A DNA stretch of 57,575 nt from an uncultured Dehalococcoidales bacterium (GTDB lineage Bacteria; Chloroflexota; Dehalococcoidia; Dehalococcoidales; UBA5627): NCBI GenBank assembly GCA_964549815.1, contig CAZJVO010000001.1, positions 1 through 57,575 of the forward strand, in the 5' to 3' direction. The translations under genes and the position numbers were made by a program. Every line of letters starts with the position of its first letter. Positions within the stretch are counted from its first letter, which is position 1. This document shows, in pieces, positions 11,906 through 52,522 of the stretch. Below the pieces are notes generated by a model. That model had not been told where the DNA came from. It made no database searches and was given only the letters and a program-made list of their open reading frames with translations.

Positions 11906-12032
11906 CCCTTCCTGGCAGTGGCATATTTTCCACAAGGAGTTGCCTCCTCAGTATCGTCTGTGCTAGAGCGTTTCACGGCCGTGTTCGGGATGGGAACGGG
12001 TGGGACCACTCTGCCTGAACCACCAGGAAGGG
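11906..12032 (-). rRNA. rrf: 5S ribosomal RNA
   Basis: Reverse complement reads CCCTTCCTGGTGGTTCAGGCAGAGTGGTCCCACCCGTTCCCATCCCGAACACGGCCGTGAAACGC...CTGCCAGGAAGGG. It has the universal CCCGTTCCCATCCCGAACACGG segment and a 10-bp terminal helix (CCCUUCCUGG/CCAGGAAGGG). Confidence 0.88.
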
Positions 12033-15608: not shown

Positions 15609-16088
15609 CTATTGTGTGTCAGGCTCTGTACTAATATCCTCTCCCTGTAATGAGGCAGCCTCAAGGACTGTTTCTATTGCTTCGCTAATAGTCTTAAGTT
15701 GGGATAGTTCCATTTTCCCCAGAAGGTCCCTCATGCGTGATTGCCCCTGTTCCCATAGTCTTGTCGCCAGCTCTCTCCCCTTATCGGTAAGGCTACAAAC
15801 AACCGCTCTTCTATCCTCGGGGTCATTGCCTCTAACTATCAGGTCCTGGTGAATCAAGCGGTCTGTAATTCCCGTTGTAGTTGATAAACTTACACCAAGC
15901 GTAGAGGCTAAAGTACTTATACGGGCTGGTCCATCTGTAAATATAATAAGAATAATCTTAAGCTGGGGCATGGTAAGGTCGATATTGAGCCATTCTGTGG
16001 GTACGATAGGTCGTAGTGTATGGCACACTTTTCTTTCAAGTTCGAGGATGCGCTCAATAAGTTGTGCTCTTTGTATATTCAGATCCAC
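15609..16088 (-). CDS. MarR family transcriptional regulator
   Basis: Winged-helix core LTMPQLKIILIIFTDGPARISTLASTLGVSLSTTTGITDRLIHQDLIVRGNDPEDRRAVVCSLTDKG. GTG start. Upstream of the RND gene. Confidence 0.85.
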   Translation of the reverse strand: MDLNIQRAQLIERILELERKVCHTLRPIVPTEWLNIDLTMPQLKIILIIFTDGPARISTLASTLGVSLSTTTGITDRLIHQDLIVRGNDPEDRRAVVCSLTDKGRELATRLWEQGQSRMRDLLGKMELSQLKTISEAIETVLEAASLQGEDISTEPDTQ

Positions 16089-16148
16089 CCTGCTCTCCCA
16101 TAAGATACTAAGACTAAAACATATAATTATTGTAGTACTAAGTTTTTT

Positions 16149-16177
16149 ATTATATCTACAGCTTGACGCATTGTCAA
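16149..16177 (-). promoter_or_regulatory. Perfect consensus promoter (TTGACA-17-TATAAT) of marR-RND with overlapping palindrome
   Basis: Minus strand reads TTGACAatgcgtcaagctgtagaTATAAT. The inverted repeat TTGAC-N5-GTCAA (16163-16177) overlaps the -35. Confidence 0.6.
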
Positions 16178-16348
16178 AAATATGGATGTGGCTGTTACAG
16201 TCTCAGAATTGCAGGTTTTAAGATAGAGAGACTCGTAATTATATTATGGTGCCTCTGTGCCTGTGATGATAGATTTTAAACATTTAGCTCATTACAATAA
16301 TGTTATCGCAGCTTACCGCTACCCCATCATAAAAATCTATCGATAGCT

Positions 16349-16990
16349 TTATTTATTCTCTTTTCCTTTGCCTCGGAATGTATCGAAAATGAAGTCCTTT
16401 TTCCGGTGAGGCTTTTGCAGGGCTGCCAGAGCGGTGGGAAGAAATTTGATAAAGCTTATTATGAACAGGAGGGCGGCCATGACGGTAGCAAATGCGGAAC
16501 CAGTGCCGAACCAGACGATGAAGGGCAATGAGATAAGCGCAATTGCCATGGAAAGTGCAACATTACGGGTGATACCAAGCGGAATAAGAATGAGGGCTAT
16601 AAAGATTCCAAGTTGGAGCGGGTATCCATATGCAGGGAATAGCACCAGCAGGATGCCGACGGAGGTTGCCATCCCCTTGCCTCCGCTAAATTTTAGCCAT
16701 GGCATCCAGTTATGCCCTATGACGGCCGCCAGTCCGGCAAGCAGAACGAAGGCATCGGCAGCATTTAATCCCCATCTGGCGATAGCAATGGCGGAAGCCC
16801 CTTTGGCGATGTCAATCGCCAGCACAATAAGCCCGGGTGCTATACCCACCTCGCGGAGGACGTTCATAAAACCGACGTTGCCTCCGCCAAGTTTGCGAAT
16901 ATCATGCCCGGTCAACAGGCGGGTAACAAGATAAGCCGTAGGAATACTGCCTAAAAGATAACCGGTGATAATAGCAAGAGCTTCACTCAT
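16349..16990 (-). CDS. plsY: Glycerol-3-phosphate acyltransferase PlsY
   Basis: GYLLGSIPTAYLV...HDIRKLGGGNVGFMNVLR...AIDIAKG. 213 aa polytopic protein. Confidence 0.88.
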   Translation of the reverse strand: MSEALAIITGYLLGSIPTAYLVTRLLTGHDIRKLGGGNVGFMNVLREVGIAPGLIVLAIDIAKGASAIAIARWGLNAADAFVLLAGLAAVIGHNWMPWLKFSGGKGMATSVGILLVLFPAYGYPLQLGIFIALILIPLGITRNVALSMAIALISLPFIVWFGTGSAFATVMAALLFIISFIKFLPTALAALQKPHRKKDFIFDTFRGKGKENK

Positions 16991-17038
16991 CAGAACCTCC
17001 TCACCTGTTATCTGCCAAAAATGCTATCGTGGTACTTG

Positions 17039-17953
17039 CTATTTGTATACAGGAGTACACCAATCGATGTATTTATCTTTATTTCCCCTGATGACATCGA
17101 AGTATAACTTCTGTAATTTTACAGTGATTTCCCCAGGTTTGCCGGTGCCAATCCTGGTGTTTTCTATTTCAGCTACCGGTGTTAGATGTGCTGCAGTGCC
17201 CGTGAGGAAGCATTCATCGGCGTTGTAAAGTTCTACCAGCCCAATCTTCTTTTCTATGGTATCGATTCCCAGTTCATTTCTGGCAAGCGTCATAACCGTA
17301 TCTCGTGTAATGCCCTTCAGAATGCTGTCCTTTGGCGTTGGAGTGTATAGCTTGCCATTCTTCACCAGAAAAATATTCTCTCCGCTTCCTTCGGAAACAT
17401 TCCCCTCCTGCGAAAGCATAATACCTTCATCGTAGCCTCTTGTGACAGCTTCGGATTTTGTGAAGGCATTGTTTATATATAAGCCGGTTATTTTGGCACC
17501 TGCAGGTATAACGTTATCCGCCGGCCGCCTCCAGGATGAGATACAGCATCGGCAGGCATCGGCATCAATGTATCTGCCCCAGGGAATAGCAAAAACAAGG
17601 AAATCGTTATCCAGGTTGTGCAGGCGGACACCCATTGCCTCGGTGCTCTTATATGATAGGGGGCGAATGTAAATGTCCTCTTTAAACCCACTCTTCTGAA
17701 TCATCTCCACGGTTATCTGGCACAGCTCATCGATAGAGTAAGGCAATTTCATCTGTAAAAGAGCGCTCCCCTCGGCCAAACGCTGGTAGTGTTCTTTCAT
17801 ACGGAAAATATAAATCTGTTCCTTCTCCTCGTTCCAGTTGCCCCTGATGCCCTCGAAGACGGCAGTGCCGTAATGCAGGGCATGGGTCATAATTCCGATT
17901 TTTGCTTCAGACAGAGGAACGAATTCTTTGCGTAAAAAAGCGTATGATGGCAT
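17039..17953 (-). CDS. ilvE: Branched-chain amino acid aminotransferase (class IV)
   Basis: 304 aa. HALHYGTAVFEGIRG, YIRP and ENIFLVKNGKLYTP..ILKGITR are typical of IlvE. Confidence 0.82.
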   Translation of the reverse strand: MPSYAFLRKEFVPLSEAKIGIMTHALHYGTAVFEGIRGNWNEEKEQIYIFRMKEHYQRLAEGSALLQMKLPYSIDELCQITVEMIQKSGFKEDIYIRPLSYKSTEAMGVRLHNLDNDFLVFAIPWGRYIDADACRCCISSWRRPADNVIPAGAKITGLYINNAFTKSEAVTRGYDEGIMLSQEGNVSEGSGENIFLVKNGKLYTPTPKDSILKGITRDTVMTLARNELGIDTIEKKIGLVELYNADECFLTGTAAHLTPVAEIENTRIGTGKPGEITVKLQKLYFDVIRGNKDKYIDWCTPVYK

Positions 17954-18058
17954 ATAACTCTCCTTGGTATTTATACAATTTTATAGCCAGAATTATAGTC
18001 CTATACAAGAGTTAAGGCAAATTGATAAGATGGCATTTCTTTATCCTACCAAACTTGA

Positions 18059-18084
18059 TACCCCGACCGTGAGGTCGTGGGAAG
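18059..18084. repeat. 26-nt hairpin-forming element, copy 1 (TACCCCGACCGTGAGGTCGTGGGAAG)
   Basis: Its reverse complement matches 25566-25591 at 25 of 26 positions; the single difference lies in the loop. Confidence 0.8.
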
Positions 18085-18101
18085 TATATTATGCGGTTTG
18101 G

Positions 18102-18130
18102 TTGACAATATTTTGTTTTGGTGTCATTAT
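18102..18130 (+). promoter_or_regulatory. Candidate promoter of the DUF134 operon (TTGACA-17-TGtCATTAT)
   Basis: TTGACA at 18102-18107, then an extended -10-like TGtCATTAT after a 17-nt spacer. Confidence 0.45.
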
Positions 18131-18135
18131 TAATA

Positions 18136-18151
18136 ATGAGCATATGCTCAT
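18136..18151. promoter_or_regulatory. Perfect 16-bp palindrome ATGAGCATATGCTCAT (candidate operator)
   Basis: Read directly from the sequence. It lies between the candidate -10 and the SD/TTG start (18172) of the DUF134 gene. Confidence 0.5.
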
Positions 18152-18171
18152 AATGTTTAAGGGAGTCTAAT

Positions 18172-18627
18172 TTGTCAAGGCCGTTTAAGTGTCGCAGGGT
18201 AGCATATATGCCTGGTGTAACCTATTTCAAACCGGCGGGCATCCCTCTGGGAGCCCTCGAGGAAGTCGTATTATCTCTTGAAGAAGTGGAGGCTTTGCGC
18301 CTTAAAGAGTTGGAGGGGCTGGAGCAGGAGCAGGGCGCCGAAAGAATGAATATCTCCCGCCCGACATTTCAAAGGATTCTGGCTTCGGCGAGGCAAAAAG
18401 TTGCCGATGCCATACTTAACGGCAAGGCAATACGCATTGAGGGTGGTAACTTCGAGATGGCTTTGAACCGGTTCAGGTGTCATGGAGGGCATGAATGGGA
18501 TGCCGATAATGCTGTCGGCACTCCTGCGTTCTGCCCGCAGTGTAACGATACGGATGTTCAACCTGTTTATCCGAAGGGATTCGGTTGCGGTGGGAGGGGC
18601 TACAGACAGTGCCACCGAAGAAAATAG
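18172..18627 (+). CDS. DUF134 (UPF0251) family putative DNA-binding protein with a C-terminal Cys/His extension
   Basis: MSRPFKCRRVAYMPGVTYFKPAGIPL...LSLEEVEALRLKELEGLEQEQGAERMNISRPTFQRILASARQKVADAILNGKAIRIEG matches the DUF134 core. The tail reads CHGGHEW...CPQCND. Confidence 0.8.
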   Translation: MSRPFKCRRVAYMPGVTYFKPAGIPLGALEEVVLSLEEVEALRLKELEGLEQEQGAERMNISRPTFQRILASARQKVADAILNGKAIRIEGGNFEMALNRFRCHGGHEWDADNAVGTPAFCPQCNDTDVQPVYPKGFGCGGRGYRQCHRRK

Positions 18628-18689
18628 AAACGATTTACTATAAATAAACGGAATGTATCCTAAATAGAAATAATAAAAGGAGGTGCACT

Positions 18690-18944
18690 ATGCCGGGATT
18701 TGATGGGACAGGCCCCCGTGGTATGGGGCCGATGACAGGAGGAGGAAGAGGTTTTTGTGTTGTACAGGGGGTGAGGCCTGTGGCGCGTCCGCTCGGTATG
18801 CGGCGCGGAGCCGGATACGGATATGCCAACAGGGTTGTTCCTGCAAGGGATGATGAAATCGATTCTTTGAAGGGCGAAATGCAATTGCTCAGGGATTCTC
18901 TTGGCAGGATAGAAGCGCAGATCGAAAAACTTGCCGGGAAATAA
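18690..18944 (+). CDS. DUF5320 family protein
   Basis: MPGFDGTGPRGMGPMTGGGRGFC N-terminus plus a C-terminal coiled coil (IDSLKGEMQLLRDSLGRIEAQIEKL). Confidence 0.7.
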   Translation: MPGFDGTGPRGMGPMTGGGRGFCVVQGVRPVARPLGMRRGAGYGYANRVVPARDDEIDSLKGEMQLLRDSLGRIEAQIEKLAGK

Positions 18945-18977
18945 ATTTTTGAATCTAAATTCGATAAAGGAGTAATT

Positions 18978-19343
18978 ATGAAAATAGCTGTTTCAGCTAC
19001 TGAACCAAAGCTGGAAGCCGGAGTAGATGAAAGATTCGGGCGTTGTAAGTATTTTGTTATTGTTGATACGGATACCATGGATTTTGAAACGGTAGATAAT
19101 TCCGCTTCGCTAGCTTCCGGCGGCGCTGGAGTTGCAACGGCACAGATGATAGCAGGGAAAGGCGTTGCGGCCGTGCTTACCGGCAATTGCGGCCCCAATG
19201 CGTATCAGGTATTATCGCCTGCCGGTATCAAGGTCATCACCGGGGTTTTCGGAAGTGTTAAGGAAGCAGTCGAGTCTTATAAGGTGGGTAAATATGAAGA
19301 AGCCTCCCAGTCCAATGCCCCCGACCATTTTGGAAAGGGATAG
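18978..19343 (+). CDS. NifB/NifX-family (dinitrogenase FeMo-cofactor-binding domain) protein
   Basis: MKIAVSATEP...VDERFGRCKYFVIVDTDTMDFE...AGKGVAAVLTGNCGPNAYQVL is the typical single-domain NifX-like pattern. Confidence 0.8.
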   Translation: MKIAVSATEPKLEAGVDERFGRCKYFVIVDTDTMDFETVDNSASLASGGAGVATAQMIAGKGVAAVLTGNCGPNAYQVLSPAGIKVITGVFGSVKEAVESYKVGKYEEASQSNAPDHFGKG

Positions 19344-19376
19344 TCTTTAGCAAATAACTGGTTAAGAGGTGGAATT

Positions 19377-19574
19377 ATGCCGAGAGGAGACGTAATGGGG
19401 CCTTCGGGGAACTTATCGCAAAGAGGTGGGCGAATGCAGGGCAATCGCAGGGGAGCCGGAACCGGCGGAAACTGCGTCTGCCCCTCCTGCGGGACAAAGG
19501 TTCCCCATCAGCAGGGAACTCCCTGTTCCAATATGAGCTGCCCGAAATGCGGAACGAGGATGGTCAGGGAATAG
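19377..19574 (+). CDS. Small DUF5320-like protein with a C-terminal zinc ribbon
   Basis: MPRGDVMGPSG start and a Gly/Arg-rich segment, followed by CVCPSCG...CPKCG (four-Cys ribbon). 65 aa. Confidence 0.6.
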   Translation: MPRGDVMGPSGNLSQRGGRMQGNRRGAGTGGNCVCPSCGTKVPHQQGTPCSNMSCPKCGTRMVRE

Positions 19575-19575
19575 A

Positions 19576-20442
19576 ATGATAATATCCGTTGCCAGCGGAA
19601 AGGGAGGGACAGGGAAGACACTCATATCTACCAGCCTTGCCCTTTCCCTGAAAGATGAATTCGAAGTAACGCTTGCCGATTGTGATGTCGAAGAGCCGAA
19701 TGACCATATTTTTCTCAATCCGCAGATTACGGCCAGCGAGCCGGTGTGTGTCCGTGTCCCCGTCATAGCGGAAAAAAAGTGCACTTTCTGCGGTTTGTGC
19801 GCCAGGGTATGCGCTTTCAATGCCATTGCTGTGCTCGGTAATCATATGCTGACTTTCCCACAGCTGTGCCATGGGTGCGGTGCCTGCAGTTACCTCTGCC
19901 CTGAAAAGGCCATAAGCGAAGAATCCAGGCAGATAGGGATTGTCGAACAGGGCAATTCCGGCGTGTTAAAGTTTGTACAGGGCACCCTTACAGTTGGGGA
20001 GGCAATGGCTCCCCCAGTTATCAGCAGGGTCAAAGAGCTGGCAGGGGAAAAGGGGATTGTTATCAGGGATGCCCCTCCGGGAGCTGCCTGCCCGGTAGTT
20101 GAAACAGTGAAAGGCAGCGATTTTTGCCTTCTTTTGACCGAGCCGACTCCGTTCGGTCTCAACGACCTTATCCTGGCGGTGGAAACAGTCAGGACACTGA
20201 ATATACCCTTTGGTGTTGTTATCAACAGGGCAGGGAGCGGTGATGCCGGAGTAGAGGATTATTGCCGCAAAGAAAAAATTCCGGTTCTGCTTACAATTCC
20301 GCTGGATACGGAAATTGCTCGCTTGTATTCGCGCGGTATCGCTCTCGTCAAGGGGATACCGCAGTGGAAGAACGCATTTCTCCGGCTTTTTAACGATATC
20401 AGGGAGGTGACAGGTGCAGGAACTGGTAGTACTCAGCGGTAA
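19576..20442 (+). CDS. MinD/ParA-superfamily P-loop ATPase with inserted 2x[4Fe-4S] ferredoxin domain (paralog A)
   Basis: Deviant Walker A VASGKGGTGKT. Two CxxCxxCxxxCP-type motifs (CTFCGLCARVCAFNAI; CHGCGACSYLCPEKAI). Confidence 0.85.
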   Translation: MIISVASGKGGTGKTLISTSLALSLKDEFEVTLADCDVEEPNDHIFLNPQITASEPVCVRVPVIAEKKCTFCGLCARVCAFNAIAVLGNHMLTFPQLCHGCGACSYLCPEKAISEESRQIGIVEQGNSGVLKFVQGTLTVGEAMAPPVISRVKELAGEKGIVIRDAPPGAACPVVETVKGSDFCLLLTEPTPFGLNDLILAVETVRTLNIPFGVVINRAGSGDAGVEDYCRKEKIPVLLTIPLDTEIARLYSRGIALVKGIPQWKNAFLRLFNDIREVTGAGTGSTQR

Positions 20443-21295
20443 GGGTGGAACGGGAAAAACCAGCATTGTCGGTTCGCTGGCAGCGCTGGCGAAGAGAAAG
20501 GTACTGGTAGATTGCGATATCGATGCGGCCGACCTGCATCTTATTCTTCTGCATCCTTTTATGAAGCAGAAAGAGGAGTTCTGGAGCGGGCAGGTAGCTT
20601 TTATCGACCCGTCGAAGTGCACATGTTGTGGATTATGCCAGAGACTTTGCCGCTTCGAAGCTATAAAAAATTTCGAGGTGGACACGGTATCCTGTGAAGG
20701 CTGTGGTTTTTGCTCGCATATATGCCCGCAGCAGGCAATCACCATGAAAGATAATATGGCGGGGTATATGTTCATTTCCGATACGAGGTACGGCCCGTTG
20801 GTGCATGCCCGTCTGGGGATTGCGCAGGAAAACTCCGGTAAGTTAGTCGCCAGAGTACGCCAGCAGGCAAAAAAGGTGGCTGCAGAAAAAGAGGCGGAAT
20901 ATATCATCTGTGACGGGCCTCCCGGTATCGGCTGTCCGGTTATTTCTTCCCTGTCCGGAGCCAATCTGGCATTACTGGTGGTCGAGCCGACTCTTTCGGG
21001 TATTCACGATATGCAGAGGGTGCTGGAGGTGTGCCGCCATTTCAATGTCCCGGCTGTCGTCTGCATCAATAAATACGATATCAACGAAGAAAATGCACGT
21101 AAAATAGAGAATTGTTGCCGGTCTCAGGATGTAGAAGTCGTAGCCAGAATCCCCTTCGATAACGTAGTAACCGATGCTATGATACAGGGCATTCCGGTAG
21201 TCGAACACTCCGAAGGTGCTGTTGCAGGGGAGATAAAATTGCTCTGGCAGCGGATTTCAGGTATTCTGAAAGCAGGTGAAGTTTCTTCTGAATAA
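20414..21295 (+). CDS. MinD/ParA-superfamily P-loop ATPase with inserted 2x[4Fe-4S] ferredoxin domain (paralog B)
   Basis: GTG start 6 nt after GGAGG. LSGKGGTGKT, CTCCGLCQRLCRFEAI, CEGCGFCSHICPQQAI. Overlaps paralog A by 29 nt. Confidence 0.85.
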   Translation: MQELVVLSGKGGTGKTSIVGSLAALAKRKVLVDCDIDAADLHLILLHPFMKQKEEFWSGQVAFIDPSKCTCCGLCQRLCRFEAIKNFEVDTVSCEGCGFCSHICPQQAITMKDNMAGYMFISDTRYGPLVHARLGIAQENSGKLVARVRQQAKKVAAEKEAEYIICDGPPGIGCPVISSLSGANLALLVVEPTLSGIHDMQRVLEVCRHFNVPAVVCINKYDINEENARKIENCCRSQDVEVVARIPFDNVVTDAMIQGIPVVEHSEGAVAGEIKLLWQRISGILKAGEVSSE

Positions 21296-21317
21296 AAATC
21301 TTTAAAAGGTTAACACT

Positions 21318-21695
21318 ATGCAGAAATTGATAGATGAGTTTATGGGCATGAAACGGTTTGCTGTGGTGGGGGCATCCGATAATCCCGAAAAGTATGGCAA
21401 CAGGATAGTGAAAAATCTTAAAGGCAGGGGTTATGAAGTCTATCCAGTCAATCCGCGGCTCAAGGAAGTCGATGGATTGACCTGCTATGCCAGCCTTGCC
21501 GATATCCCGGTTAAAGTCGACATCGTCGATTTTGTAGTGCCTCCGGTGGTAACCGAAGAGGTTCTGAAACAGTGCAGGGAACTGGGATTGAACCGCATCT
21601 GGCTGCAACCCGGTTCGGAAAGCCAATCGGCAATCGATTACTGCCAAGAGAATAATCTGTATGTTGTGTATAATGTATGTGTCATGATGAATTGA
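21318..21695 (+). CDS. CoA-binding domain protein (YccU/YneT-like)
   Basis: FAVVGASDNPEKYGNRIVKNLKGRGYEVYPVNP...IDIVDFVVPP. 125 aa. Confidence 0.8.
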   Translation: MQKLIDEFMGMKRFAVVGASDNPEKYGNRIVKNLKGRGYEVYPVNPRLKEVDGLTCYASLADIPVKVDIVDFVVPPVVTEEVLKQCRELGLNRIWLQPGSESQSAIDYCQENNLYVVYNVCVMMN

Positions 21696-21758
21696 TAAAA
21701 TATTCAGCGTAAAATCGATAGTATATACAATAAAAATAAATTAAAGGAGTATGGTTTA

Positions 21759-22151
21759 ATGAAATTTGCAATTCCGGTAGTAAACGGTGCCCTTTCGTCA
21801 CATTTCGGTCAGACGACCGAGTTTTTAATCATCGAGGTAAATGATAGCAAGCAGATAGTCGGTAAAGAAACCATGGCCACAGCTTCACATGATTGTCACG
21901 GGACACCGGTATTGCTGGCTCAGCGGGGAGTTAACGTTGTATTAGCCGGCGGTATGGGAATGGGGCCGCGCATGGCTTTTAAAGATAATGGCATAGAAGT
22001 CGTGCTGGGTGTTACCGAGCCTGATCCCGAAACCGCGGTTATCAAGTATCTGCATCACAGGCTGGAGCGGGGTGAAAATGTCTGCGAACACGGCGATACG
22101 GTCTGCGAACATGGCGGGCACCACGATGAACACCATCATGATTGCAATTAA
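21759..22151 (+). CDS. NifB/NifX-family cluster-binding protein with a His/Cys-rich C-terminal tail
   Basis: MKFAIPVVNGALSSHFGQTTEFLIIEV...GVNVVLAGGMGMGP. The tail reads GENVCEHGDTVCEHGGHHDEHHHDCN. Confidence 0.8.
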   Translation: MKFAIPVVNGALSSHFGQTTEFLIIEVNDSKQIVGKETMATASHDCHGTPVLLAQRGVNVVLAGGMGMGPRMAFKDNGIEVVLGVTEPDPETAVIKYLHHRLERGENVCEHGDTVCEHGGHHDEHHHDCN

Positions 22152-22176
22152 CATTTATTAAAGAAAGGGCTATCGC

Positions 22177-22962
22177 TTGAGTTTTATCACTATCGTACTG
22201 CTCTTCCTTGTCGGCATTCTGGCTGGCGGCTTCGGCGGCTTGCTGGGGCTTGGCGGTGGAGCTATAATGCTGCCCATTGTGCGTTTTGGCTTTGGCTTTG
22301 AGCCATCGATTGCTGTAGGGACGACGCTGGTAGCCGTGATTTTTACTGCGGTTTCTGGTGCCTATCAGCACTGGAAACTGGGCAACGTTGATTGGAAATC
22401 AGTAAAATATATCGCTCCGGCAGGTGTTGCCGGGGTGATAGTGGGTTCTGTCTTATTTTATATCATCCGAGATTACACCGAGGTAATCGATTTGATACTC
22501 GGGGTAATTTTTGCCCCCATTGCTCTGAATATGATTTATGAGGGGTTGTTCAGAAGGGGCAAGATGAATTATACGGGCAACGAAATGGCAGGTAGTAACC
22601 TGCTCAAATCTGCAATTGGGGGAGGTGTGGGGGTTTTTACCGGGGTATCCGGTCTTGGAGGTGGGTTTATTCTGGTTCCTGCCTTTGTTTATTTGTTGCA
22701 CTCTCCGGTCAGGATTGCCGTAGGGTCATCGATGGCTTCCTTCGTATGGTTTGCATTGGTGGGGGGCATAATAAAAATCGCACAAGGCCTGTGCGATATT
22801 CCGGCAGCCATTGCTATGGGAGTGGGGGCTATCGGGGGGGCTGTAATCGGGGCAAGGCTTGTCTCTCACATCAAGCCTTCTACTTTAAAATCGATATTCG
22901 GTTTTATCTTTTTATATATATCTTTGAAATATATCTTCAGCTATTTCGGAATATCTATTTAA
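22177..22962 (+). CDS. TauE/SafE (DUF81) family anion exporter-like membrane protein
   Basis: 261 aa, about 8 TM, with Gly-rich repeats (GGFGGLLGLGGGAIMLP; GVSGLGGGFILVPA) typical of TauE/SafE. Confidence 0.8.
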   Translation: MSFITIVLLFLVGILAGGFGGLLGLGGGAIMLPIVRFGFGFEPSIAVGTTLVAVIFTAVSGAYQHWKLGNVDWKSVKYIAPAGVAGVIVGSVLFYIIRDYTEVIDLILGVIFAPIALNMIYEGLFRRGKMNYTGNEMAGSNLLKSAIGGGVGVFTGVSGLGGGFILVPAFVYLLHSPVRIAVGSSMASFVWFALVGGIIKIAQGLCDIPAAIAMGVGAIGGAVIGARLVSHIKPSTLKSIFGFIFLYISLKYIFSYFGISI

Positions 22963-22975
22963 GGAGTTCAGCGGC

Positions 22976-23428
22976 ATGTCTGATAATTTGGATGACCTGG
23001 AAGAACTATTGTTGGGAGAGGAACGCAGAAATTATTCGGCAAAGGCTATTGACCATGCCATGAATCCGCGCAATCTTGGAGTAATGGAAAATGCGGATGT
23101 ATATGCCACTATCACCGGACCCTGCGGAGATACTATAGAAATCTGGCTCAAAATCGACGACAACATCATTTCAAAAGCTACTTTTATGACTGACGGATGC
23201 GGAACAAGCATCGCTTCGGGTAGTATGGTCACCGAACTGGCAAAGGGTAGAGATATCAGGGAAGCAATGACAATCAGCCAGCAGGATATCCTGGATGCCC
23301 TCGACGGCTTGCCTGAAGAAAGCAATCATTGCGCTCTTCTGGCTTCGAATACACTGAAAGCAGCCGTCAGGGAATATATCGATATCAAGAAAGAACCCTG
23401 GAAAAGGGCTTACCGCAAGCAGCAATAA
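22976..23428 (+). CDS. IscU/NifU N-terminal-type Fe-S cluster scaffold protein
   Basis: Three ligand cysteines in the canonical context: GPCGDT, DGCGTSIAS, NHCALLA. Confidence 0.85.
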   Translation: MSDNLDDLEELLLGEERRNYSAKAIDHAMNPRNLGVMENADVYATITGPCGDTIEIWLKIDDNIISKATFMTDGCGTSIASGSMVTELAKGRDIREAMTISQQDILDALDGLPEESNHCALLASNTLKAAVREYIDIKKEPWKRAYRKQQ

Positions 23429-23443
23429 TTCTTCCGAGTTATT

Positions 23444-24202
23444 CTAGTGGCCGTATGGGCAAATCCGGTCTATCCCGGTAATAGCACAGACTGCCGCACC
23501 CGTTATGCCGAAAAGCACCAGTTTTTTGCCGTTTTTGTTTACTCTGGCATTGATATCGTCGAACGAACCGTTGGCAATGGTGCTTCCCGTCGCCAATATT
23601 ACATCGCACCAGTCTATTAATTCCCGCGTCTGCGTTTTTCCGTCCCAGATAATAACACCGGCTTTATTCTGTCCGATATTCTTGGGGTTCATATCGGTAC
23701 AATGAACATTATCTGCTCCGAAAGCCTCTACAAGACTCTCCAGTATTGCCGGTTGCAAACCTATCATTCCTATTTTTACATCGCCGTACTTTTCCCTGAT
23801 TTCATCAGCGATTATGCTGCCACATTTTGCCGGCTCTTCGTCGCGGCAGTGTTTTACTCCCGAAGCAATTCCCAGATGCGATGCGATAGCGTTCAGGGTG
23901 GCTACCATAATAGCTCGATTACTATTGGTATCCAGATTGAAAGACAATATGTCTTCTATGGTTCCTTCGAATTCTTTAGGGCTGTCGGTAAAGGCTTGTC
24001 CGAAGCCACCCCCGAACTGTGCCTGTATCATAACTTCTCTGCCTTCAAGAATGGCATAATCTTTCCTTTCAGTGTTACCGATAGCCTGCAAAGGGGATAA
24101 AGCTCCCACGGTAACTTTAACAGGCTGCCCCTCCGCCTTGTTTTCTTTTACCAGTTCTATCAGCTTGTTCCTGACGATTTGAATCGATGTTAATTCTGTC
24201 AT
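23444..24202 (-). CDS. DUF364-like Rossmann-domain protein (divergent paralog of 50365..51192)
   Basis: The C-terminal half IGMIGLQP...CDVILATGSTIANGSFDDI...LVLFGITGAAV resembles the DUF364 pattern (TGxTxxNxT...GP). Immediately downstream of modA on the same strand. Confidence 0.55.
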   Translation of the reverse strand: MTELTSIQIVRNKLIELVKENKAEGQPVKVTVGALSPLQAIGNTERKDYAILEGREVMIQAQFGGGFGQAFTDSPKEFEGTIEDILSFNLDTNSNRAIMVATLNAIASHLGIASGVKHCRDEEPAKCGSIIADEIREKYGDVKIGMIGLQPAILESLVEAFGADNVHCTDMNPKNIGQNKAGVIIWDGKTQTRELIDWCDVILATGSTIANGSFDDINARVNKNGKKLVLFGITGAAVCAITGIDRICPYGH

Positions 24203-24310: not shown

Positions 24311-25090
24311 TTATTCACTCTTAACGCTGAAACCGTATGATTCGAATATGTCTATTACCTCTGGGCTGATCAGAAAATCCAGGTAATCGCGGGCAGCTTC
24401 GGCGTTTTCAGATGCGCTGACTATAGCCGTCGGATAGGTTATCTTTGAATTTATTTCAGCGGGGGCAGAAGCCACGGTCATAACCTTATCTGATGTCAGC
24501 GCATCGGTTGAATATACGATACCAGCAACAATATTTCCTGTTTCGACGTAGGCTAATACTTCGCGTACCGTGCTCCCCAAAAGAAGTTTGTCTGCCATAT
24601 CATCACTGATTTCGAGGAGTTCAAAAAGCATCTGGGCATACTCTCCTGCCGGAACAAAAGATGGGTCTCCGATTGCCACAAGTTTGATATTATCGTTTGT
24701 AAGGTCCGTAAAATCAGCAATGTTTTGGGGATTATCGGGGGCGACGATTAAAACCAGGTTGTTTGTAAGAAAATCCCGACGTGTTTCAGATAGAATCATC
24801 CCTTGCTGCTGGAGTGAGTCCATTTGCTTGACTCCTGGTGAAATGAAGATATCACAGATAGCTCCGTTCTCAATCTGCGTTTTTAATGTTCCCGCTGCAG
24901 CGTAATTTGCCTGTATGGTAACATTTGAATTCTGTTCCATATAAAGAGCGTTGATTTCATCAATAACATCTATCATGCCTGCTCCAGCGAATACTGTCAG
25001 CGTGACAGGTTTTTCCTTGCATCCTGGAAGAATGCCGAGGACAAGAGATAGGATTACCAGCGGAATAATTTTTAACAGCGCGTTTTTCAA
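24311..25090 (-). CDS. modA: Molybdate/tungstate ABC transporter substrate-binding lipoprotein ModA
   Basis: TTG start. Lipobox LGILPGC. LTVFAGAGMIDVIDEI...ANYAAAGTLKTQIENGAICDIFISPG...YPTAIV is the typical ModA pattern. Confidence 0.82.
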   Translation of the reverse strand: MKNALLKIIPLVILSLVLGILPGCKEKPVTLTVFAGAGMIDVIDEINALYMEQNSNVTIQANYAAAGTLKTQIENGAICDIFISPGVKQMDSLQQQGMILSETRRDFLTNNLVLIVAPDNPQNIADFTDLTNDNIKLVAIGDPSFVPAGEYAQMLFELLEISDDMADKLLLGSTVREVLAYVETGNIVAGIVYSTDALTSDKVMTVASAPAEINSKITYPTAIVSASENAEAARDYLDFLISPEVIDIFESYGFSVKSE

Positions 25091-25227
25091 TTGTTATACC
25101 CCCGTTTCTTAATAATTACAAAATATATACGTGTCTACTAGTGGCTTTAAGTGGGGAAAAGGGAAGGGGGTATATAGTGGCAACTATATCGCGGCGACTA
25201 TCGATACTTGAAATAAAAGCCGTTTCC

Positions 25228-25345
25228 ATCTGCTCTCCTTTTCCAACGGGAAGCAACACCGTTTCCGGTAATGCCGTCTAGATATTCTATCTACCGGCTG
25301 TTCGCCATGGATTGCTCTTTAGGCAAAACAGCTCCGGAGAAGTCA
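25228..25345 (-). promoter_or_regulatory. Candidate molybdenum-cofactor (Moco) riboswitch in the modA leader
   Basis: Minus strand reads CUUCUCCGGAGC-[hairpin GCUGUUUUGCC..GGCGAACAGC]-[hairpin GCCGGUAGAUAgaaUAUCUAGACGGC]-[hairpin AACGG..CCGUU]-GGAAAAGGAGAGC. The 5' UCUCC pairs with the 3' GGAGA. The multi-stem layout and 3' AAAGGAG resemble the Moco motif as I recall it. Not verified by a covariance model. Confidence 0.45.
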
Positions 25346-25565
25346 AATATTTATTTTATAGCACATACGTTATAATGGTGTCAATATAACGTTTTTGATA
25401 TTATATTCTTTTTATAAAGAAATATTAAAAGAGCCTTTTAAATATGTATTGCGTCTGAAGTTTATAAAAATTGAAATATTCAGATTATTCATTGTGATAG
25501 TATGAATATATCGCCTGTAGAAAAAAACGGGTATTCGGTATAGACTAATATATATCATAAATAAA

Positions 25566-25637: not shown

Positions 25638-26474
25638 GTGGAAATAAAAATCAGTACCTTAAGTGAAAACACAGCGCTTCACGGTTATATCGGAGAATAC
25701 GGCCTGAGTCTTTTTATCGAGGCTGACGGCAAGCGCATCCTGTTCGATACCGGATTGAGTTTTTCCGCTTATCACAACGCCCAGCTAATGGGCATTGATT
25801 TAACTAAAGTCGATTGCATAGTTCTCAGCCATGGTCACCTCGACCATACGGGCGGACTCAGCGAAATGTTGCGCAGAATCGGTAAAGAAATAGGGGTTAT
25901 TGCCCATCCCGATGTACTCGAACCGAGGTATACGCTGCGTGACGGGCAAACGCAGGAAAAATTCATCGGAATGCCCTGTTCAAAAGAGGAACTGGAGAAC
26001 CGCGGCGCAATTTTTACACTGTCCAAAGAGCCCGTATATATAACTTCCAATATAATGACCACCGGGGAAATCCCCATGCTGACCGAGTACGAGAAAGTGG
26101 AAAGCAATCTCCATATTAAAGTCGGGGATGCTTTTCTACCTGATAAAATAGCCGATGATTTATCCCTCATCGTAAATGCAGATTTTGGGATGGTAGTATT
26201 TACCGGATGCGGTCACCGCGGGGTTATCAATATCGTCAGACATTCTCAGAAATTGGCGGGAAATAATAATATCTATGCCGTTATTGGCGGCATCCATCTC
26301 TTCAGAGCTTCGGAGGAGAGGGTTCAAAGGACGATTGCAGAACTCGGAACAATAGGGATAAAAAAGTTGGGAGTTTCCCATTGCACTGGTTTTAAAGCCT
26401 CGGCAAAAATCGCCGACGCATTCCCGAAAGAGTTTTTCTCGAATAACGCCGGAAACAGGTTCGTTCTTCCGTAG
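25638..26474 (+). CDS. MBL-fold metallo-hydrolase (COG1237-like)
   Basis: LSENTALHGYIGEYGLSLFIEADGKRILFDTG...VLSHGHLDHTGG...FTGCGHRGVIN...GGIHL is the beta-lactamase-fold HxHxDH signature. Confidence 0.8.
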   Translation: MEIKISTLSENTALHGYIGEYGLSLFIEADGKRILFDTGLSFSAYHNAQLMGIDLTKVDCIVLSHGHLDHTGGLSEMLRRIGKEIGVIAHPDVLEPRYTLRDGQTQEKFIGMPCSKEELENRGAIFTLSKEPVYITSNIMTTGEIPMLTEYEKVESNLHIKVGDAFLPDKIADDLSLIVNADFGMVVFTGCGHRGVINIVRHSQKLAGNNNIYAVIGGIHLFRASEERVQRTIAELGTIGIKKLGVSHCTGFKASAKIADAFPKEFFSNNAGNRFVLP

Positions 26475-47225: not shown

Positions 47226-48314
47226 TTGATTGGTTTCTGGATGATGACCATAAAGAATATTCAAAAAATATGTGCCGATAAACTCAGTTGTATAAATCTT
47301 AAAAGCGAAAACGGATTTTGGTTAAAAGTACTGATATTATCTGTTTTGTTAGTTGCTCTGTTTTTGGGGTCTTTTCTGGTCGGAAGATACGATATATCCA
47401 TAAAGACGATTATCGACATTTTCGCTTCGAATATTTTCCCTGTTGAGCAGTACTGGGAGGACACCTTGGCGATGGTGGTTCAGCAGGTACGGTTTCCCAG
47501 GATAGTCCTGGCAATTCTTATCGGTGGTGCCCTTTCCGTTTCAGGTGCTTCTTACCAGACTCTTTTCAAGAATCCGATGGTTTCACCGGATATACTTGGG
47601 GTTTCAGCTGGCGCCGGTTTCGGTGCTGCCTTGGCTATGATAAACGGGGCAAACTGGGTTGGAATACAAGGTTCTGCCTTTGTATTCGGTCTTGCGGCGG
47701 TTATCATTGCCTTCACGATTGCTCAGGTATTCGGCGGTAGGTCATTTACGGTTCTGATACTCGGCGGTATCGTGGTTGGCAGTTTTTTTCAGGCACTTTT
47801 ATCTATCATCAAAACCCTTGCAGATACGGAAAACGAGTTGCCGGCAATTACATTCTGGCTGATGGGGAGCCTCAGCAGGGGTGATAATGATGATATTCTC
47901 ATAATGCTCCCAGCATTACTCATATCTCTGTTTCTGCTTTTTCTGTTCCGCCACCATATAAACGCACTGTCCGCGGGAGAGGACGTAGCACAAACTATGG
48001 GTGTCAATGTGACTCTGGTGAAGACAGTTATTGTTACAAGCTCTACCTTGATGACGGTCGCCTCCGTAGCTGTCTGCGGTATTATCGGCTGGATAGGGTT
48101 GGTTATTCCCCATTTCGCTCGCATGCTGGTTGGTGCCAGCTATTCGAAAATAGCAGTGGTTTCTTTTCTGCTGGGCGGTTTTTTCCTTCTGGGCATTGAT
48201 GATATCATCCGCGGAGTTGAGGGGGTAGAAGTACCGCTGGGAGTGCTTACTGCTCTTATAGGGACTCCTGTGTTCGCTTTTCTCCTTACCAAGTTAAGAA
48301 GAGGGTGGAATTGA
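47226..48314 (+). CDS. FecCD/BtuC family (iron-chelate/cobalamin type) ABC transporter permease
   Basis: LFLGSFLVGRYDIS, RFPRIVLAILIGGALSVSGASYQTLFKNPMVSPDILGVSAGAG, GIIGWIGLVIPH. The ATG at 47241 is an alternative start. Confidence 0.88.
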   Translation: MIGFWMMTIKNIQKICADKLSCINLKSENGFWLKVLILSVLLVALFLGSFLVGRYDISIKTIIDIFASNIFPVEQYWEDTLAMVVQQVRFPRIVLAILIGGALSVSGASYQTLFKNPMVSPDILGVSAGAGFGAALAMINGANWVGIQGSAFVFGLAAVIIAFTIAQVFGGRSFTVLILGGIVVGSFFQALLSIIKTLADTENELPAITFWLMGSLSRGDNDDILIMLPALLISLFLLFLFRHHINALSAGEDVAQTMGVNVTLVKTVIVTSSTLMTVASVAVCGIIGWIGLVIPHFARMLVGASYSKIAVVSFLLGGFFLLGIDDIIRGVEGVEVPLGVLTALIGTPVFAFLLTKLRRGWN

Positions 48315-49129
48315 TGTTAAAGGTTGAAAATCTGAAGTTTTATTACAGCAAGGAACATATAGTAATAAAAGACATTTCTTTTGCATTGAATGAGCATGAT
48401 GTGCTTTGCCTGCTGGGTCCTAACGGAACCGGCAAGACAACTCTTCTTCGTTGTTTGCTGGCGCTCAATAAACCTGTAGCCGGAACGGTTCAAATCGATG
48501 GTTTCAATATAACCAGAACTACCTCTCGAAAGTTGGCGAAATACCTGGCTTATGTTCCGCAGGCATCTTCAATGGCTTTTCCTTATGAGGCAGAAGAAAT
48601 TGTACTTATGGGCCGTATCGCTCATTTGAATCTGGGAGCCAGCCCTACCAGGAAAGACAGGGAAATATGTTGTGAGGCAATGGAATGCCTTGGGATATCA
48701 CATTTAAGAACGAAATCATTCAATAAGATGAGTGGTGGTGAGCGGCAGATGGTGCTGGTTGCCAGAGCGATGGCTCAGCAAGCGAAAATTCTTATTATGG
48801 ATGAGCCTACTGCCAATCTCGACTACAGCAATCAGGTAAAAATCCTTCAAATCATTAATCAACTGTCTGAACAGGGATATTCGATATTGATGACCTCACA
48901 TTTCCCTGACCATGCCTTCCTGGCATGTAACCGGGTAATACTGATGAAAGATGGCGTGGTTATGGCATGCGGGACACCAGATAACGTGGTTACTTCCGAT
49001 AGCCTTTCTAATCTATATCAGACACAGGTATGTGTTACCGAGGCAACTCTTTATCCGGGAGATACCAGAACAAAGGTATGCATTCCGATAATGAAAAAAA
49101 ATTCAATATTAAAAAAGGAGAACAATTAA
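48305..49129 (+). CDS. ABC transporter ATP-binding protein (FepC/BtuD type)
   Basis: GPNGTGKTTLLR, MSGGERQMV, ILIMDEPTANLD. Confidence 0.9.
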   Translation: MELMLKVENLKFYYSKEHIVIKDISFALNEHDVLCLLGPNGTGKTTLLRCLLALNKPVAGTVQIDGFNITRTTSRKLAKYLAYVPQASSMAFPYEAEEIVLMGRIAHLNLGASPTRKDREICCEAMECLGISHLRTKSFNKMSGGERQMVLVARAMAQQAKILIMDEPTANLDYSNQVKILQIINQLSEQGYSILMTSHFPDHAFLACNRVILMKDGVVMACGTPDNVVTSDSLSNLYQTQVCVTEATLYPGDTRTKVCIPIMKKNSILKKENN

Positions 49130-50338
49130 ATGCAAAAAGAACAAAAGGACAGGTCGATAAAACTATCAAGGAGGGATTTTATAGCCGGAACGGGAGCGGC
49201 CATTTTACTGGGCGTATTGGGTGGATGCAAGCCCGAAACTATCACATCTACAGTTACTTCTACCAAAACAGCAACACAGGTTAACACGAGTACCGTTTCG
49301 AACGTCTCAACCGTAACTGAGACCATTATCTCCAATATCACCAGTACAAATACCGTTACCAGTACGGTCACTGAAACCGTAACGCCGGCTTCATCGTTTA
49401 CCGTAACCGATATGGCGGGACGCACAGTCGAAATTCCGGCTGTCATTAATAAAATTGCCACATTCGGCTCCATTGGTGTTTTGAATGCTATGGTTGAGAC
49501 TATAGGGTGTGGGTCTAAAATTGCCAACCAGATGTCTGCCAGCTTTACCAAGACGGATAAATGGAAATACCAGTATGTTTTCGCCCCGCAGGTTGCCGAT
49601 GGTCCCGTGCTGGAAGTGGGTGGGGAAATAGACATTGAAGCCGTCCTCCAGCTCGACCCTGATGTTTGCCTGTGTATGACTGAGGCAACGGCAGCTCTTC
49701 TTGAAGAAAAAGGGCTGGCTGTTGTTTATCTTGAATGGCAAACCCTCGATGATGTCGAACCGTGTATCACCTTGCTGGGAGAGATTTTCAGCAAGCAGGA
49801 TATAGCAGCTGATTATATCGAGTACTTTAATAATAAAGTCGCTGAAGCCGAGTCGCTTACTGCAGGGCTTGCCGACGAGGACAAAAAGACAGTCCTGTAT
49901 GGCAACATCACAACTTACACTCAGCCTCATGCTATCGCCGAATGGTGGATTGCCGAAGCAGGTGGTATCAGCGTGACTAATACCGGACGAGATCTGGAAG
50001 CTGTTGCCAGTTATACTTATACGCTTGAAGACCTGCTTTTATGGAATCCCGATGTAATGGTAACTACTGCAAATACGATGGCAGCTGAACTATTGGCAAT
50101 GGATACCCTGAAAAGTATTAATGCTATCAAGAATAACGAAATATATTATATTCCCACCGTAGCGCATGTATGGGGCAATCGTACACCAGAACAGCCACTG
50201 ACAGTATTCTGGATGATGAATAAGCTTTACCCTGATATTATGCCGGTTGATACTCTAAAAGAAGAAATACGCTATTTTTACAGCCATTTCTTCCTTACCA
50301 ATCTGACGGATGAACAACTGATCGAAATTATTGGCTAG
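49130..50338 (+). CDS. Class III (BtuF/FecB-like) substrate-binding lipoprotein, Tat signal, Thr/Ser/Val-rich linker (SBP1)
   Basis: SRRDFIAGTGAAILLGVLGGC (twin-Arg plus lipobox). About 50-aa T/S/V linker. Then FTVTDMAGRTVEIPAVINKIATF...DPDVCL..., typical of periplasmic binding protein family 2. Confidence 0.85.
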   Translation: MQKEQKDRSIKLSRRDFIAGTGAAILLGVLGGCKPETITSTVTSTKTATQVNTSTVSNVSTVTETIISNITSTNTVTSTVTETVTPASSFTVTDMAGRTVEIPAVINKIATFGSIGVLNAMVETIGCGSKIANQMSASFTKTDKWKYQYVFAPQVADGPVLEVGGEIDIEAVLQLDPDVCLCMTEATAALLEEKGLAVVYLEWQTLDDVEPCITLLGEIFSKQDIAADYIEYFNNKVAEAESLTAGLADEDKKTVLYGNITTYTQPHAIAEWWIAEAGGISVTNTGRDLEAVASYTYTLEDLLLWNPDVMVTTANTMAAELLAMDTLKSINAIKNNEIYYIPTVAHVWGNRTPEQPLTVFWMMNKLYPDIMPVDTLKEEIRYFYSHFFLTNLTDEQLIEIIG

Positions 50339-50364
50339 CAGAAGAAAATTATAAGGAGAAAAAA

Positions 50365-51192: not shown

Positions 51193-51207
51193 TAAATATC
51201 GAGGAGG

Positions 51208-52479: not shown

Positions 52480-52522
52480 AAAATTATTCCTGTAGTTAGA
52501 AAATTAAAAAGAGGAGTTTAGA

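Follow-up and report, generated by a model that had tools for sequence, protein, structure and literature searches.

The stretch analyzed here, referred to as the window, comprises positions 1 to 57,575 of contig CAZJVO010000001.1 (assembly GCA_964549815.1) from an uncultured Dehalococcoidales bacterium. Ten co-directional open reading frames (ORFs) from the ORF list of the window, on the + strand at 18172-23428 and named g1-g10, very probably constitute a Dehalococcoidia-type form of the ORP (orange protein) gene cluster, which is specific to anaerobes. An earlier note on this DNA had called the genes an undescribed system. This does not hold, since they are homologous to the Desulfovibrio orp cluster, which has been studied since 2011, with purification and partial characterization of its ATPases, its NifX-like proteins and their Mrp partner. 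The promoter, the operator and the ten genes are as follows (aa, amino acids).

18102..18130, + strand: predicted sigma-70-like promoter, with -35 element TTGACA at 18102-18107, a 17-nt spacer, -10 element CATTAT at 18125-18130 and TG before the -10 element
18133..18154, no strand: putative operator, a 22-bp palindrome, ATAATGAGCAT/ATGCTCATAAT, with its core TGAGCATATGCTCA at 18137-18150
18172..18627, + strand: g1, DUF134/UPF0251 helix-turn-helix regulator, 151 aa, TTG start, Pfam DUF134 82.5 bits
18690..18944, + strand: g2, DUF5320 protein, 84 aa, PF17253 45.2 bits, N-terminal MPGFDGTGPRGMGPMTGGGRGFC motif
18978..19343, + strand: g3, single-domain NifX-like protein, 121 aa, Pfam Nitro_FeMo-Co 87.2 bits
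19377..19574, + strand: g4, Cys-rich peptide, 65 aa, degenerate DUF5320-type N-terminal motif (MPRGDVMGP...) and a Gly/Arg segment
19576..20442, + strand: g5, ATPase A, Orp3/Orp4-type, 288 aa, Pfam CbiA, ParA and Fer4
20414..21295, + strand: g6, ATPase B, 293 aa, GTG start, Pfam CbiA and Fer4
21318..21695, + strand: g7, CoA_binding_2 protein, 125 aa, Pfam 132.8 bits
21759..22151, + strand: g8, second NifX-like protein, 130 aa, Nitro_FeMo-Co 62.4 bits, with the C-terminal His/Cys tail CEHGDTVCEHGGHHDEHHHDCN
22177..22962, + strand: g9, TauE/SafE (YfcA) membrane protein, 261 aa, Pfam TauE 168.4 bits
22976..23428, + strand: g10, IscU/NifU_N-type Fe-S scaffold, 150 aa, Pfam NifU_N 117.9 bits

The cluster to which these genes are compared was described in Desulfovibrio vulgaris Hildenborough. 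There, the paralogues Orp3 and Orp4 each carry two [4Fe-4S] ferredoxin motifs (PMC6345978), Orp5 is homologous to a small [2Fe-2S]-binding protein, Orp8 is homologous to the orange protein, the holder of a non-covalent Mo-Cu-S cluster, and Orp9 (MrpORP) joins an Mrp domain to a NifX-like one (PMC6345978, PMC8359166). The genes form the divergent operons orp3-orp4-orp5 and orp7-orp8-orp9, which are activated by sigma-54, integration host factor (IHF) and the redox sensor OrpR (PMC6345978, PMC8359166). His-tagged Orp3 co-purifies with Orp4 and Orp8, MrpORP passes Fe-S clusters to them in vitro, and Orp5 and both MrpORP domains bind Fe-S clusters (PMC6345978). The Orp proteins' cellular role is called "unclear" in the literature (PMC8359166).

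The window operon shares with this cluster the paired paralogous MinD-type ATPases with two ferredoxin motifs, where the comparison to Orp3/Orp4 was made by description and through Desulfobacterota loci that carry MrpORP. It also shares an orange-protein-type protein (g3; 2WFB, E 4e-20) and a second NifX-like protein; Orp5 and the C-terminal domain of Orp9 are NifX-like, and g8 resembles the latter. Both clusters occur almost only in anaerobic lineages. The bridge between them is provided by five Desulfobacterota loci with Mrp+NifX fusions, which scored 498-518 bits against the MrpORP equivalog cut-off of 450. Each of these true MrpORP genes adjoins homologues of g5/g6, an ATPase pair with an A subunit 51-55% identical to g5. 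There are also differences. Neither the operon nor the scanned window ORFs include an Mrp or MrpORP gene, g8 corresponding to the C-terminal domain of MrpORP only, and in place of a sigma-54 promoter and OrpR there are a sigma-70-like promoter, DUF134 and a palindromic operator. No Sigma54_activat regulator was found beside the operon; such activator genes were seen in 3 related loci. The genes also lie in one operon as opposed to the two divergent ones of Desulfovibrio, with DUF5320, the g4 peptide, CoA-binding, TauE and IscU as extra genes. Since two defining features of the ORP cluster (MrpORP and OrpR/sigma-54) are missing, we consider the operon a variant and not a plain member.

The spacers between the genes are, in order, 62, 33, 33, 1, -29, 22, 63, 25 and 13 nt, in keeping with the range of -29 to about 63 nt given in the earlier note. 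That note counted eleven genes; its own list holds ten names, as does the ORF list. A Pfam scan agreed with its family calls (DUF134, DUF5320, two Nitro_FeMo-Co, CbiA with Fer4, CoA_binding_2, TauE and NifU_N). The relative L003/L004, whose ATPase is 81% identical, has all ten genes in identical order and, modA apart, the same flanking genes; the arrangement is therefore not due to chance. The nearest named relatives are Dehalococcoidales or Dehalococcoidia metagenome-assembled genomes. A terminator scan gave matches at chance level and no convincing internal terminator, and the ten genes are predicted to form one operon. The GC skew of the window rises from about -0.02 to +0.18 near 18 kb (about 16000-20000), where gene orientation changes from minus to plus and Gly/Arg-rich genes set in. 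This jump is probably an effect of coding strand and composition, not a replication landmark.

Conservation of the gene neighborhood was surveyed with a one-genome-per-species scan seeded with g5 and g6. Out of 519 confirmed relatives, the best 80 loci (48-72% identity to g5) were used, and the frequencies given here describe this g5-matched sample only. ORFs were tagged by profiles and motif rules derived from the window proteins and by a trimmed NifX-domain profile; 37 loci, which extend 5 kb or more to either side, were counted as complete. The bacterial loci came from Dehalococcoidia, Acidobacteriota, Omnitrophota, WOR-3, Ignavibacteria, Zixibacteria, many Desulfobacterota, Planctomycetota, Clostridia and Leptospirales, among others, and the archaeal loci from methanogens, Methanophagales, Bathyarchaeia, Thermoplasmatota and Altiarchaeota, among others. 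Judged by taxon names, nearly all 80 belong to anaerobic lineages; one was labelled Nitrososphaeria. ATPase B was present in 97% of the complete loci (directly after ATPase A in 33 of the 37), any NifX-like protein in 95%, two or more NifX-like proteins in 86% and a Gly/Arg-rich element (DUF5320, g4-type or NifX-fused tail) in 76%. The ATPase pair, two or more NifX-like proteins and the Gly/Arg-rich DUF5320-type elements thus make up the core of the cluster. Mrp/ApbC (65%), IscU and FmdB-type zinc ribbons (51% each) and DUF134 (35%) were frequent as well, radical S-adenosylmethionine (SAM) proteins were present in 32%, and TauE (8%) and CoA-binding proteins (3%) were rare. The families recur together with a definable core subset, and the survey supports the earlier proposal that the genes are one conserved unit for metal-sulfur clusters.

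Untagged ORFs near the tagged genes were clustered, and a representative of most clusters was checked in Pfam. The recurrent neighbors were DUF89/ARMT1-like proteins (13 loci), CGGC (12), hydrolases of the metallo-beta-lactamase (MBL) fold (11), DUF364 (11), receiver domains (10), SAM methyltransferases (9), Fur (8), DUF1847 (5), small ferredoxins (5), DUF59 (FeS_assembly_P; 3) and sigma-54 activators (3). Recurrent partners are mostly iron and Fe-S proteins, and they point to iron/Fe-S metabolism.

Proteins that join parts of the cluster in one chain were sought in an exhaustive search of 1.84 billion representative proteins, which returned 5464 relatives of g5, 838 of them with E <= 1e-30. 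These 838 are clusters at 50% identity and come from many bacterial and archaeal phyla. Two Walker A motifs were present in 33 of the 150 best g5 representatives, which are A-B fusions with A first (e.g., P0183), and four proteins fuse a NifX-like domain to ATPase A (P0214, P0229, P0245 and P0253). The NifX-like domain is fused to DUF5320 in loci L005 and L026, the two scanned with Pfam, and tagging found it followed by a Gly/Arg-rich tail in 35 of the 80 loci. Taken together with MrpORP, the A-B, NifX-ATPase and NifX-DUF5320 fusions, which are new in this analysis, physically link all core parts. These links agree with the published co-purification of Orp proteins and lend indirect support to possible complex formation by the window proteins. 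Two other fusions were seen, a DUF89/ARMT1-like domain with ATPase A (P0261) and ATPase A with a SAM methyltransferase (P0221). Neither the DUF89 nor the methyltransferase family is in the window operon; both are among the recurrent neighbors elsewhere.

The two ATPases are paralogues with 34% identity, and both keep the deviant Walker A motif SGKGGTGKT. g5 is a MinD/Mrp-class ATPase with an inserted 2x[4Fe-4S] ferredoxin domain. As had been noted, each protein carries two CxxCxxCxxxC motifs; the Pro said to follow both follows the second only. The GTG start of g6 overlaps g5 by 29 nt, suggesting translational coupling. An AlphaFold2 model of g5 (predicted local distance difference test score 88.3, predicted template modeling score 0.85) was searched with Foldseek, and the best matches were archaeal MinD, FlhG/FleN, ATPase-type HypB, Cfd1, ApbC and BchL, about 220-270 residues long (ApbC 346) with template modeling scores of 0.5-0.7. 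Structure searches found no solved structure for the ferredoxin-inserted subfamily. All eight ferredoxin Cys of g5 and C172 (in DxPPGxxCP) are conserved in 81 of 81 A sequences, with C36 in 99%, and the eight ferredoxin Cys and C174 of g6 are conserved in 74 of 74 B sequences. C172 and C174 lie seven residues past the Walker B Asp. We take this to be the distance between the switch II Asp and the cluster-ligand Cys of NifH, and treat it as a lead.

With Mrp/NBP35/ApbC, Cfd1, HypB and CooC the pair shares the fold, the deviant Walker A and the character of dimeric nucleotide-dependent switches, and Mrp/ApbC-, Cfd1- and HypB-type ATPases are among the structures that the g5 model matched best. 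Unlike these ATPases, g5 and g6 carry the inserted 2x[4Fe-4S] ferredoxin domain, and they have a single invariant Cys after Walker B whereas Mrp carries a CxxC motif. g5 and g6 almost certainly work as a heterodimer, as had been claimed, because A is followed by B in 33 of the 37 complete loci, A-B fusions exist (33 of 150) and Orp3 and Orp4 co-purify (PMC6345978).

The best Protein Data Bank sequence matches of g3 were 2WFB, 'ORP' of D. gigas (E 4e-20, residues 2-109), and 1EO1, MTH1175 (E 1.7e-19); the NCBIfam MrpORP model was also flagged on g3. g8 matches that model at positions 265-364, the C-terminal domain only (87.3 bits, cut-off 450). It resembles the C-terminal 'Di-Nase' domain of MrpORP (Orp9), with weak Protein Data Bank matches, and its previously noted His/Cys tail is present. 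In g2, a cationic Gly/Arg/Pro-rich segment (pI 11.6) is followed by an acidic, coiled-coil-like C-terminal segment, and a DUF5320 module of the g2 type sits fused behind a NifX-like domain in relatives. The N-terminal part of g4 is also cationic (pI 12.0), and its C-terminal module, CxCPxCG-x4-H-x5-C-x4-CPxCG, holds six Cys and one His. In an alignment of 19 family members, C33, C35, C38, H44, C50, C55 and C58 are invariant. The earlier description of g4 as DUF5320-like holds by way of its family: the peptide alone gave weak zinc-ribbon matches and no Pfam DUF5320 match, but the family aligned to the DUF5320 N-terminal motif with an hhalign probability of 96.4% (E 1e-9) and has 10 of 19 members that match PF17253. 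In the window, in L003 and in several other loci, the g4 gene directly precedes that of ATPase A. The exact g4 protein is absent from the public protein collection, where its nine neighbors are present; g4 was either uncalled on the contig or called with other ends.

These proteins were also compared with IssA of Pyrococcus furiosus, an iron-sulfur (thioferrate) storage protein made of a NifX-like domain and a 70-residue cationic tail rich in Gly, aromatics and Pro (PMC5524996). IssA-type proteins bind thioferrate, form nanoparticles and are induced when iron and sulfide are plentiful. The same study named MTH1175 an IssA-type protein and described an uncharacterized mesophilic 'IssX' clade, whose tails are rich in Gly (PMC5524996). 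In Methanococcus voltae, two NifX-like proteins with locus tags four apart rise when thioferrate-like iron accumulates (PMC8516115). The IssA tail has 21% G, 10% cationic residues, 20% aromatics and 16% P with a pI of 10.7 over its 70 aa (PMC5524996). The disordered segments of 46 DUF5320 proteins average 75 aa, 28% G, 10% R+K, 15% aromatics and 13% P with a pI of 10.0. The DUF5320 composition, by sequence, matches that of the IssA tail, which would link the ORP cluster to IssA-type storage; this link is new here. Moreover, g3 and g8 have the same globular domain as IssA (IPR003731, Nitro_FeMo-Co), of the non-Nif kind as judged by pairwise matches only. g3 is as near to MTH1175 as to the orange protein, and relatives of the window operon encode NifX-like domains with fused Gly/Arg-rich tails. 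By analogy to IssA, g3 and g8 could bind thioferrate. The operon differs from IssA in that the cationic module lies on the separate proteins g2 and g4, together with the N-terminal motif and a coiled coil or Cys-rich module, extra modules that are not mentioned for IssA (PMC5524996). Also, no dedicated ATPase pair was linked to IssA in the literature examined.

The single candidate promoter/operator claimed before g1 was found as a sigma-70-like promoter, scoring 10/12 by consensus match only, and the 22-bp palindrome. The -35 element and its position are kept in L003, and the palindrome is identical there while the flanking bases diverge. The palindrome directly follows the -10 element, about 20 nt before g1, and would cover the likely transcription start. 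In many phyla the pattern TGnnCATATGnnCA was found upstream of a DUF134 gene or of the first gene of the cluster, at a distance of about 25-40 nt, and its inner positions covary symmetrically between lineages. The TGAGC..GCTCA variant occurs in Dehalococcoidales, Zixibacteria and Ignavibacteria, the TGGAC..GTCCA and TGAAC..GTTCA variants in other Dehalococcoidia and Desulfobacterales, and the TGTGnnTATGCACA variant, sometimes doubled, in Bathyarchaeia. A strict scan (score at least 11/12) of 1.02 Mb gave 17 sites, 10 of which fall in the 6.5 kb around DUF134 starts. This is a density of 1.54 per kb compared to 0.0069 per kb elsewhere, an enrichment of about 220-fold. Of the 7 remaining sites, 5 are upstream of a cluster gene by no more than about 60 nt; one of these genes is the untagged DUF134 gene of L003. 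The site in L085 is at the start of the locus, upstream of ATPase genes, and that in L013 is just upstream of an ORF that clusters with DUF364. Within the window, 18133-18154 is the sole exact site, with only chance-level matches inside coding regions besides. The occurrence of the palindromic operator TGnnCATATGnnCA upstream of DUF134 genes is new in this analysis.

The TTG start of g1 is backed by alignment, since the RPFKCRRV segment is conserved; some gene callers give a 139-aa version. Pfam also reported a sigma-70 region 4-like helix-turn-helix in g1, and no informative solved-structure relative was found. g1 and the long bacterial DUF134 forms share a conserved C-terminal 'RFRC..GHEW..P..CP.C' segment, Cys/His ribbon-like, and a short Gly/Arg tail, which may sense a signal. 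From the placement of the site we infer that DUF134 acts as a dimeric autoregulating repressor of the cluster at the palindrome, as would fit the dedicated regulator proposed before. Fur was also considered as the palindrome binder and was rejected because the site follows DUF134 and not the loci with Fur. A literature search on DUF134 and DUF5320 returned nothing on function, mostly unrelated matches such as DUF1349. For the ATPases and NifX-like proteins, the earlier statement that no role has been experimentally assigned is out of date.

Among the remaining genes, g10 keeps the three conserved Cys (GPCGD, DGCG and HCA) and scored 130 bits, below the model cut-off, with NCBIfam NifU_clost. 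An ISC-type pairing was not seen, as IscU is present with no class-V aminotransferase (IscS/NifS) among the scanned window ORFs. CoA_binding_2 was found in only 3 of the 80 related loci (4 with L061, where ATPase A is untagged), plus L003. TauE was found in 3 of the 37 complete loci, two from Ignavibacteria and one from Ca. Vecturithrix. g7 and g9 are therefore lineage-specific accessories of uncertain role, and the earlier note overweighted TauE.

Downstream of the operon lie three features on the opposite strand.

23444..24202, - strand: DUF364 ('putative heavy-metal chelation'), Pfam 47.1 bits, convergent with g10, downstream of modA and outside the operon
24311-25090, - strand: modA, TIGR01256 171.5 bits (cut-off 62.5)
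25220-25350, - strand: molybdenum cofactor (Moco) riboswitch, Rfam RF01055 57.8 bits (gathering score 36), directly upstream of modA

modA and DUF364 are a separate unit, convergent with the operon and under a Moco riboswitch of its own, suggesting that DUF364 would be expressed under Moco control in this organism. DUF364 keeps its position in L003, where modA is missing. In L005 and another ten loci, a DUF364 gene is part of the cluster or adjoins it, on the same strand. The window has a second DUF364+DUF4213 gene (50365-51192, + strand), immediately followed by MoeA (51208-52479), another link of DUF364 to Mo/W cofactor genes. Both lie inside a FecCD-type ATP-binding cassette transporter cluster at 47226-56148 (+ strand) with a permease (47226-48314), an ATPase (48305-49129), Peripla_BP_2 genes (49130-50338, 53701-54870 and 54937-56148) and an O-methyltransferase (52523-53590).

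Several side observations were made in the window and the related loci. An MBL-fold (Lactamase_B) gene at 25638-26474 (+ strand) clusters with the MBL-fold genes in or beside related clusters in 11 loci, and a Lactamase_B gene of the same length is at the same position in L003. The small FmdB-type zinc-ribbon proteins of related loci (MPIYEYxCxxCG..., e.g., L005:7514-7735 and L012:9838-10083) are absent from the window; many end in Cys-rich tails such as CCGRxERCxxPPCSxxGxCRR. A 'putative zinc- or iron-chelating' domain with a CxxCxxCC motif (PF03692, 27 bits) is present in a 292-aa protein about 9 kb downstream of the operon (32062-32940, - strand). An Rfam scan of the 57.6-kb window found a 5S rRNA gene at 11910-12027 (- strand, 80 bits) and no 16S rRNA, 23S rRNA or tRNA gene.

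The homology, conserved linkage, fusion proteins and operator described above were observed directly, and the chemistry proposed from them is ours. The most likely function of the operon, to which we give a little less than an even chance, is the ATP- and redox-driven storage and delivery of iron sulfide. A g1 dimer would bind the palindrome over the likely transcription start and repress the operon until a metal- or Fe-S-related signal is received. g3 and g8 would bind anionic metal-sulfide species, either Fe-S clusters or thioferrate-like iron sulfide, and the Gly/Arg-rich cationic segments of g2 and g4 would replace the IssA tail in trans, wrapping and stabilizing the bound material, which the g2 coiled coil and the Cys-rich module of g4 might oligomerize or ligate. 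The Orp3/Orp4-type heterodimer g5/g6, with two [4Fe-4S] clusters each, would couple ATP use to electron transfer or a conformational switch, and this step would load or release the bound iron sulfide. g10 would take Fe and S and build ordinary Fe-S clusters for client proteins; g7 and g9 would be lineage-specific additions of uncertain role. The heterodimeric redox ATPase, carriers, scaffold and regulator of the earlier outline are retained in this scheme, but not its view of the system as undescribed and self-contained or the weight it gave to TauE and Mo/W. Its general idea of ATP- and electron-dependent cluster handling is viable.

A number of points weigh against iron-sulfide storage. The operon is without an Mrp carrier and the scanned window ORFs are without a sulfur donor such as a cysteine desulfurase, so the system is not obviously self-contained, given that 65% of complete loci have Mrp. 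A cationic tail is missing from both g3, which stops shortly past the domain, and g8, whose tail is acidic with His/Cys; therefore the IssA analogy needs DUF5320 to act in trans. The pairing of DUF134 and the palindrome is one of co-occurrence only, Fur-family regulators are present in some clusters, and the single transcript is a prediction. Finally, the isolated orange protein carries a Mo-Cu-S cluster, not iron sulfide (PMC6345978), and the Desulfovibrio group favors a link to cell division, from morphological defects (PMC8359166).

The nature of the orange protein cluster raises the possibility that the NifX-like proteins bind thiomolybdate- or thiotungstate-type clusters and that the system, together with ModA, DUF364 and MoeA, buffers, detoxifies or delivers Mo/W in sulfidic habitats. 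The orange protein, a close homologue of g3, binds [S2MoS2CuS2MoS2] and can form S2MoS2-M-S2MoS2 clusters in vitro (PMC6345978). modA and DUF364 are directly downstream under the Moco riboswitch, DUF364 is part of the cluster or next to it in L005 and another ten loci, and the second DUF364 of the window adjoins MoeA. We nevertheless find this explanation unlikely. Profile tagging gave zero ModA matches in all 80 loci, the gene is missing from the closest relative, and the modA-DUF364 unit is convergent and separately regulated. The frequent partners are the Fe-S proteins IscU, Mrp, Fur and DUF59, and Orp5 and both MrpORP domains bind Fe-S clusters (PMC6345978). As to the adjacent Mo/W uptake genes of the earlier note, modA does adjoin the operon, but the window yielded neither modB nor modC, and no Mo enzyme adjoins the operon. 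The Mo/W link is weak.

Another possible explanation, and a very improbable one in our view, is that the MinD-like pair places the division site or a polar structure in anaerobes without MinCDE, its Fe-S clusters making positioning redox-sensitive. In D. vulgaris, OrpR inactivation stops Orp production and leads to morphological defects, and the authors propose a role in division and report polar localization of MrpORP (PMC6345978, PMC8359166); the phenotype may be indirect, and they call the role unclear (PMC8359166). MinD, FlhG and FleN are the structures closest to g5, but the same fold is found in the metal- and cluster-inserting ATPases HypB, Cfd1, ApbC and BchL. No MinC, MinE or other division genes recur in the 80 neighborhoods, where NifX-like proteins, IscU, Mrp and Fur do, and the NifX-ATPase fusions tie the ATPase to a cluster-binding domain. 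A further explanation, along the lines of the earlier note, is an assembly line for a specific complex cofactor, by analogy to the iron-molybdenum cofactor (FeMo-co), in which NifX-like carriers would hand a precursor from a scaffold to a target enzyme with the help of a NifH-like redox ATPase. The NifX domain carries cofactor precursors in nitrogenase maturation (PMC5524996). The operon shares with that pathway a carrier domain of the NifX type and a dimeric, Fe-S cluster-bearing ATPase of the SIMIBI class, both of which suggest an ATP-gated redox or transfer step. Radical SAM proteins in 32% of complete loci, the recurrence of SAM methyltransferase and DUF89 genes, both of which also occur fused to ATPase A, and the invariant Cys seven residues past the Walker B Asp in both ATPases also favor this proposal. 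However, no conserved candidate target enzyme was found in the neighborhoods, and the cluster is found across organisms of very different metabolisms. In agreement with the earlier note, Pfam found no nifB, nifEN or nifHDK among the scanned window ORFs; g5 and g6 are MinD/Mrp-like with an inserted ferredoxin domain, not NifH; and the IssA clade has been placed apart from the NifX, NafY and NifB clades (PMC5524996). The Gly/Arg-rich IssA-like elements suit bulk anionic binding over the transfer of a single cofactor, and a dedicated assembly line appears to us a poor candidate.

Iron-sulfide storage could be extended into a bolder reading, possible but rather doubtful, in which the cluster is a widespread "anaerobic ferritin" machine that IscU feeds on and DUF134 switches. 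The NifX-like proteins would nucleate a protein-bound thioferrate-like polymer or condensate, with the DUF5320-type proteins as free-standing IssA tails docked by the shared MPxxDGTGP motif, and the Orp3/Orp4-type ATPase would spend ATP and electrons on laying down or dissolving the material. If this were true, the ORP and IssA literatures would be joined, and DUF134 and DUF5320 would gain a function. The ORP cluster is among the most widespread anaerobe gene clusters of unexplained function, and it bears on iron and sulfur storage in strict anaerobes and on the supply of their Fe-S assembly. This analysis narrows that function through the invariant core, the contacts seen in fusions, the DUF5320-IssA tie and the DUF134 operator, and corrects the view of the genes as wholly unstudied. 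The predicted regulator-operator pair of DUF134 and TGnnCATATGnnCA is open to a quick gel-shift test.

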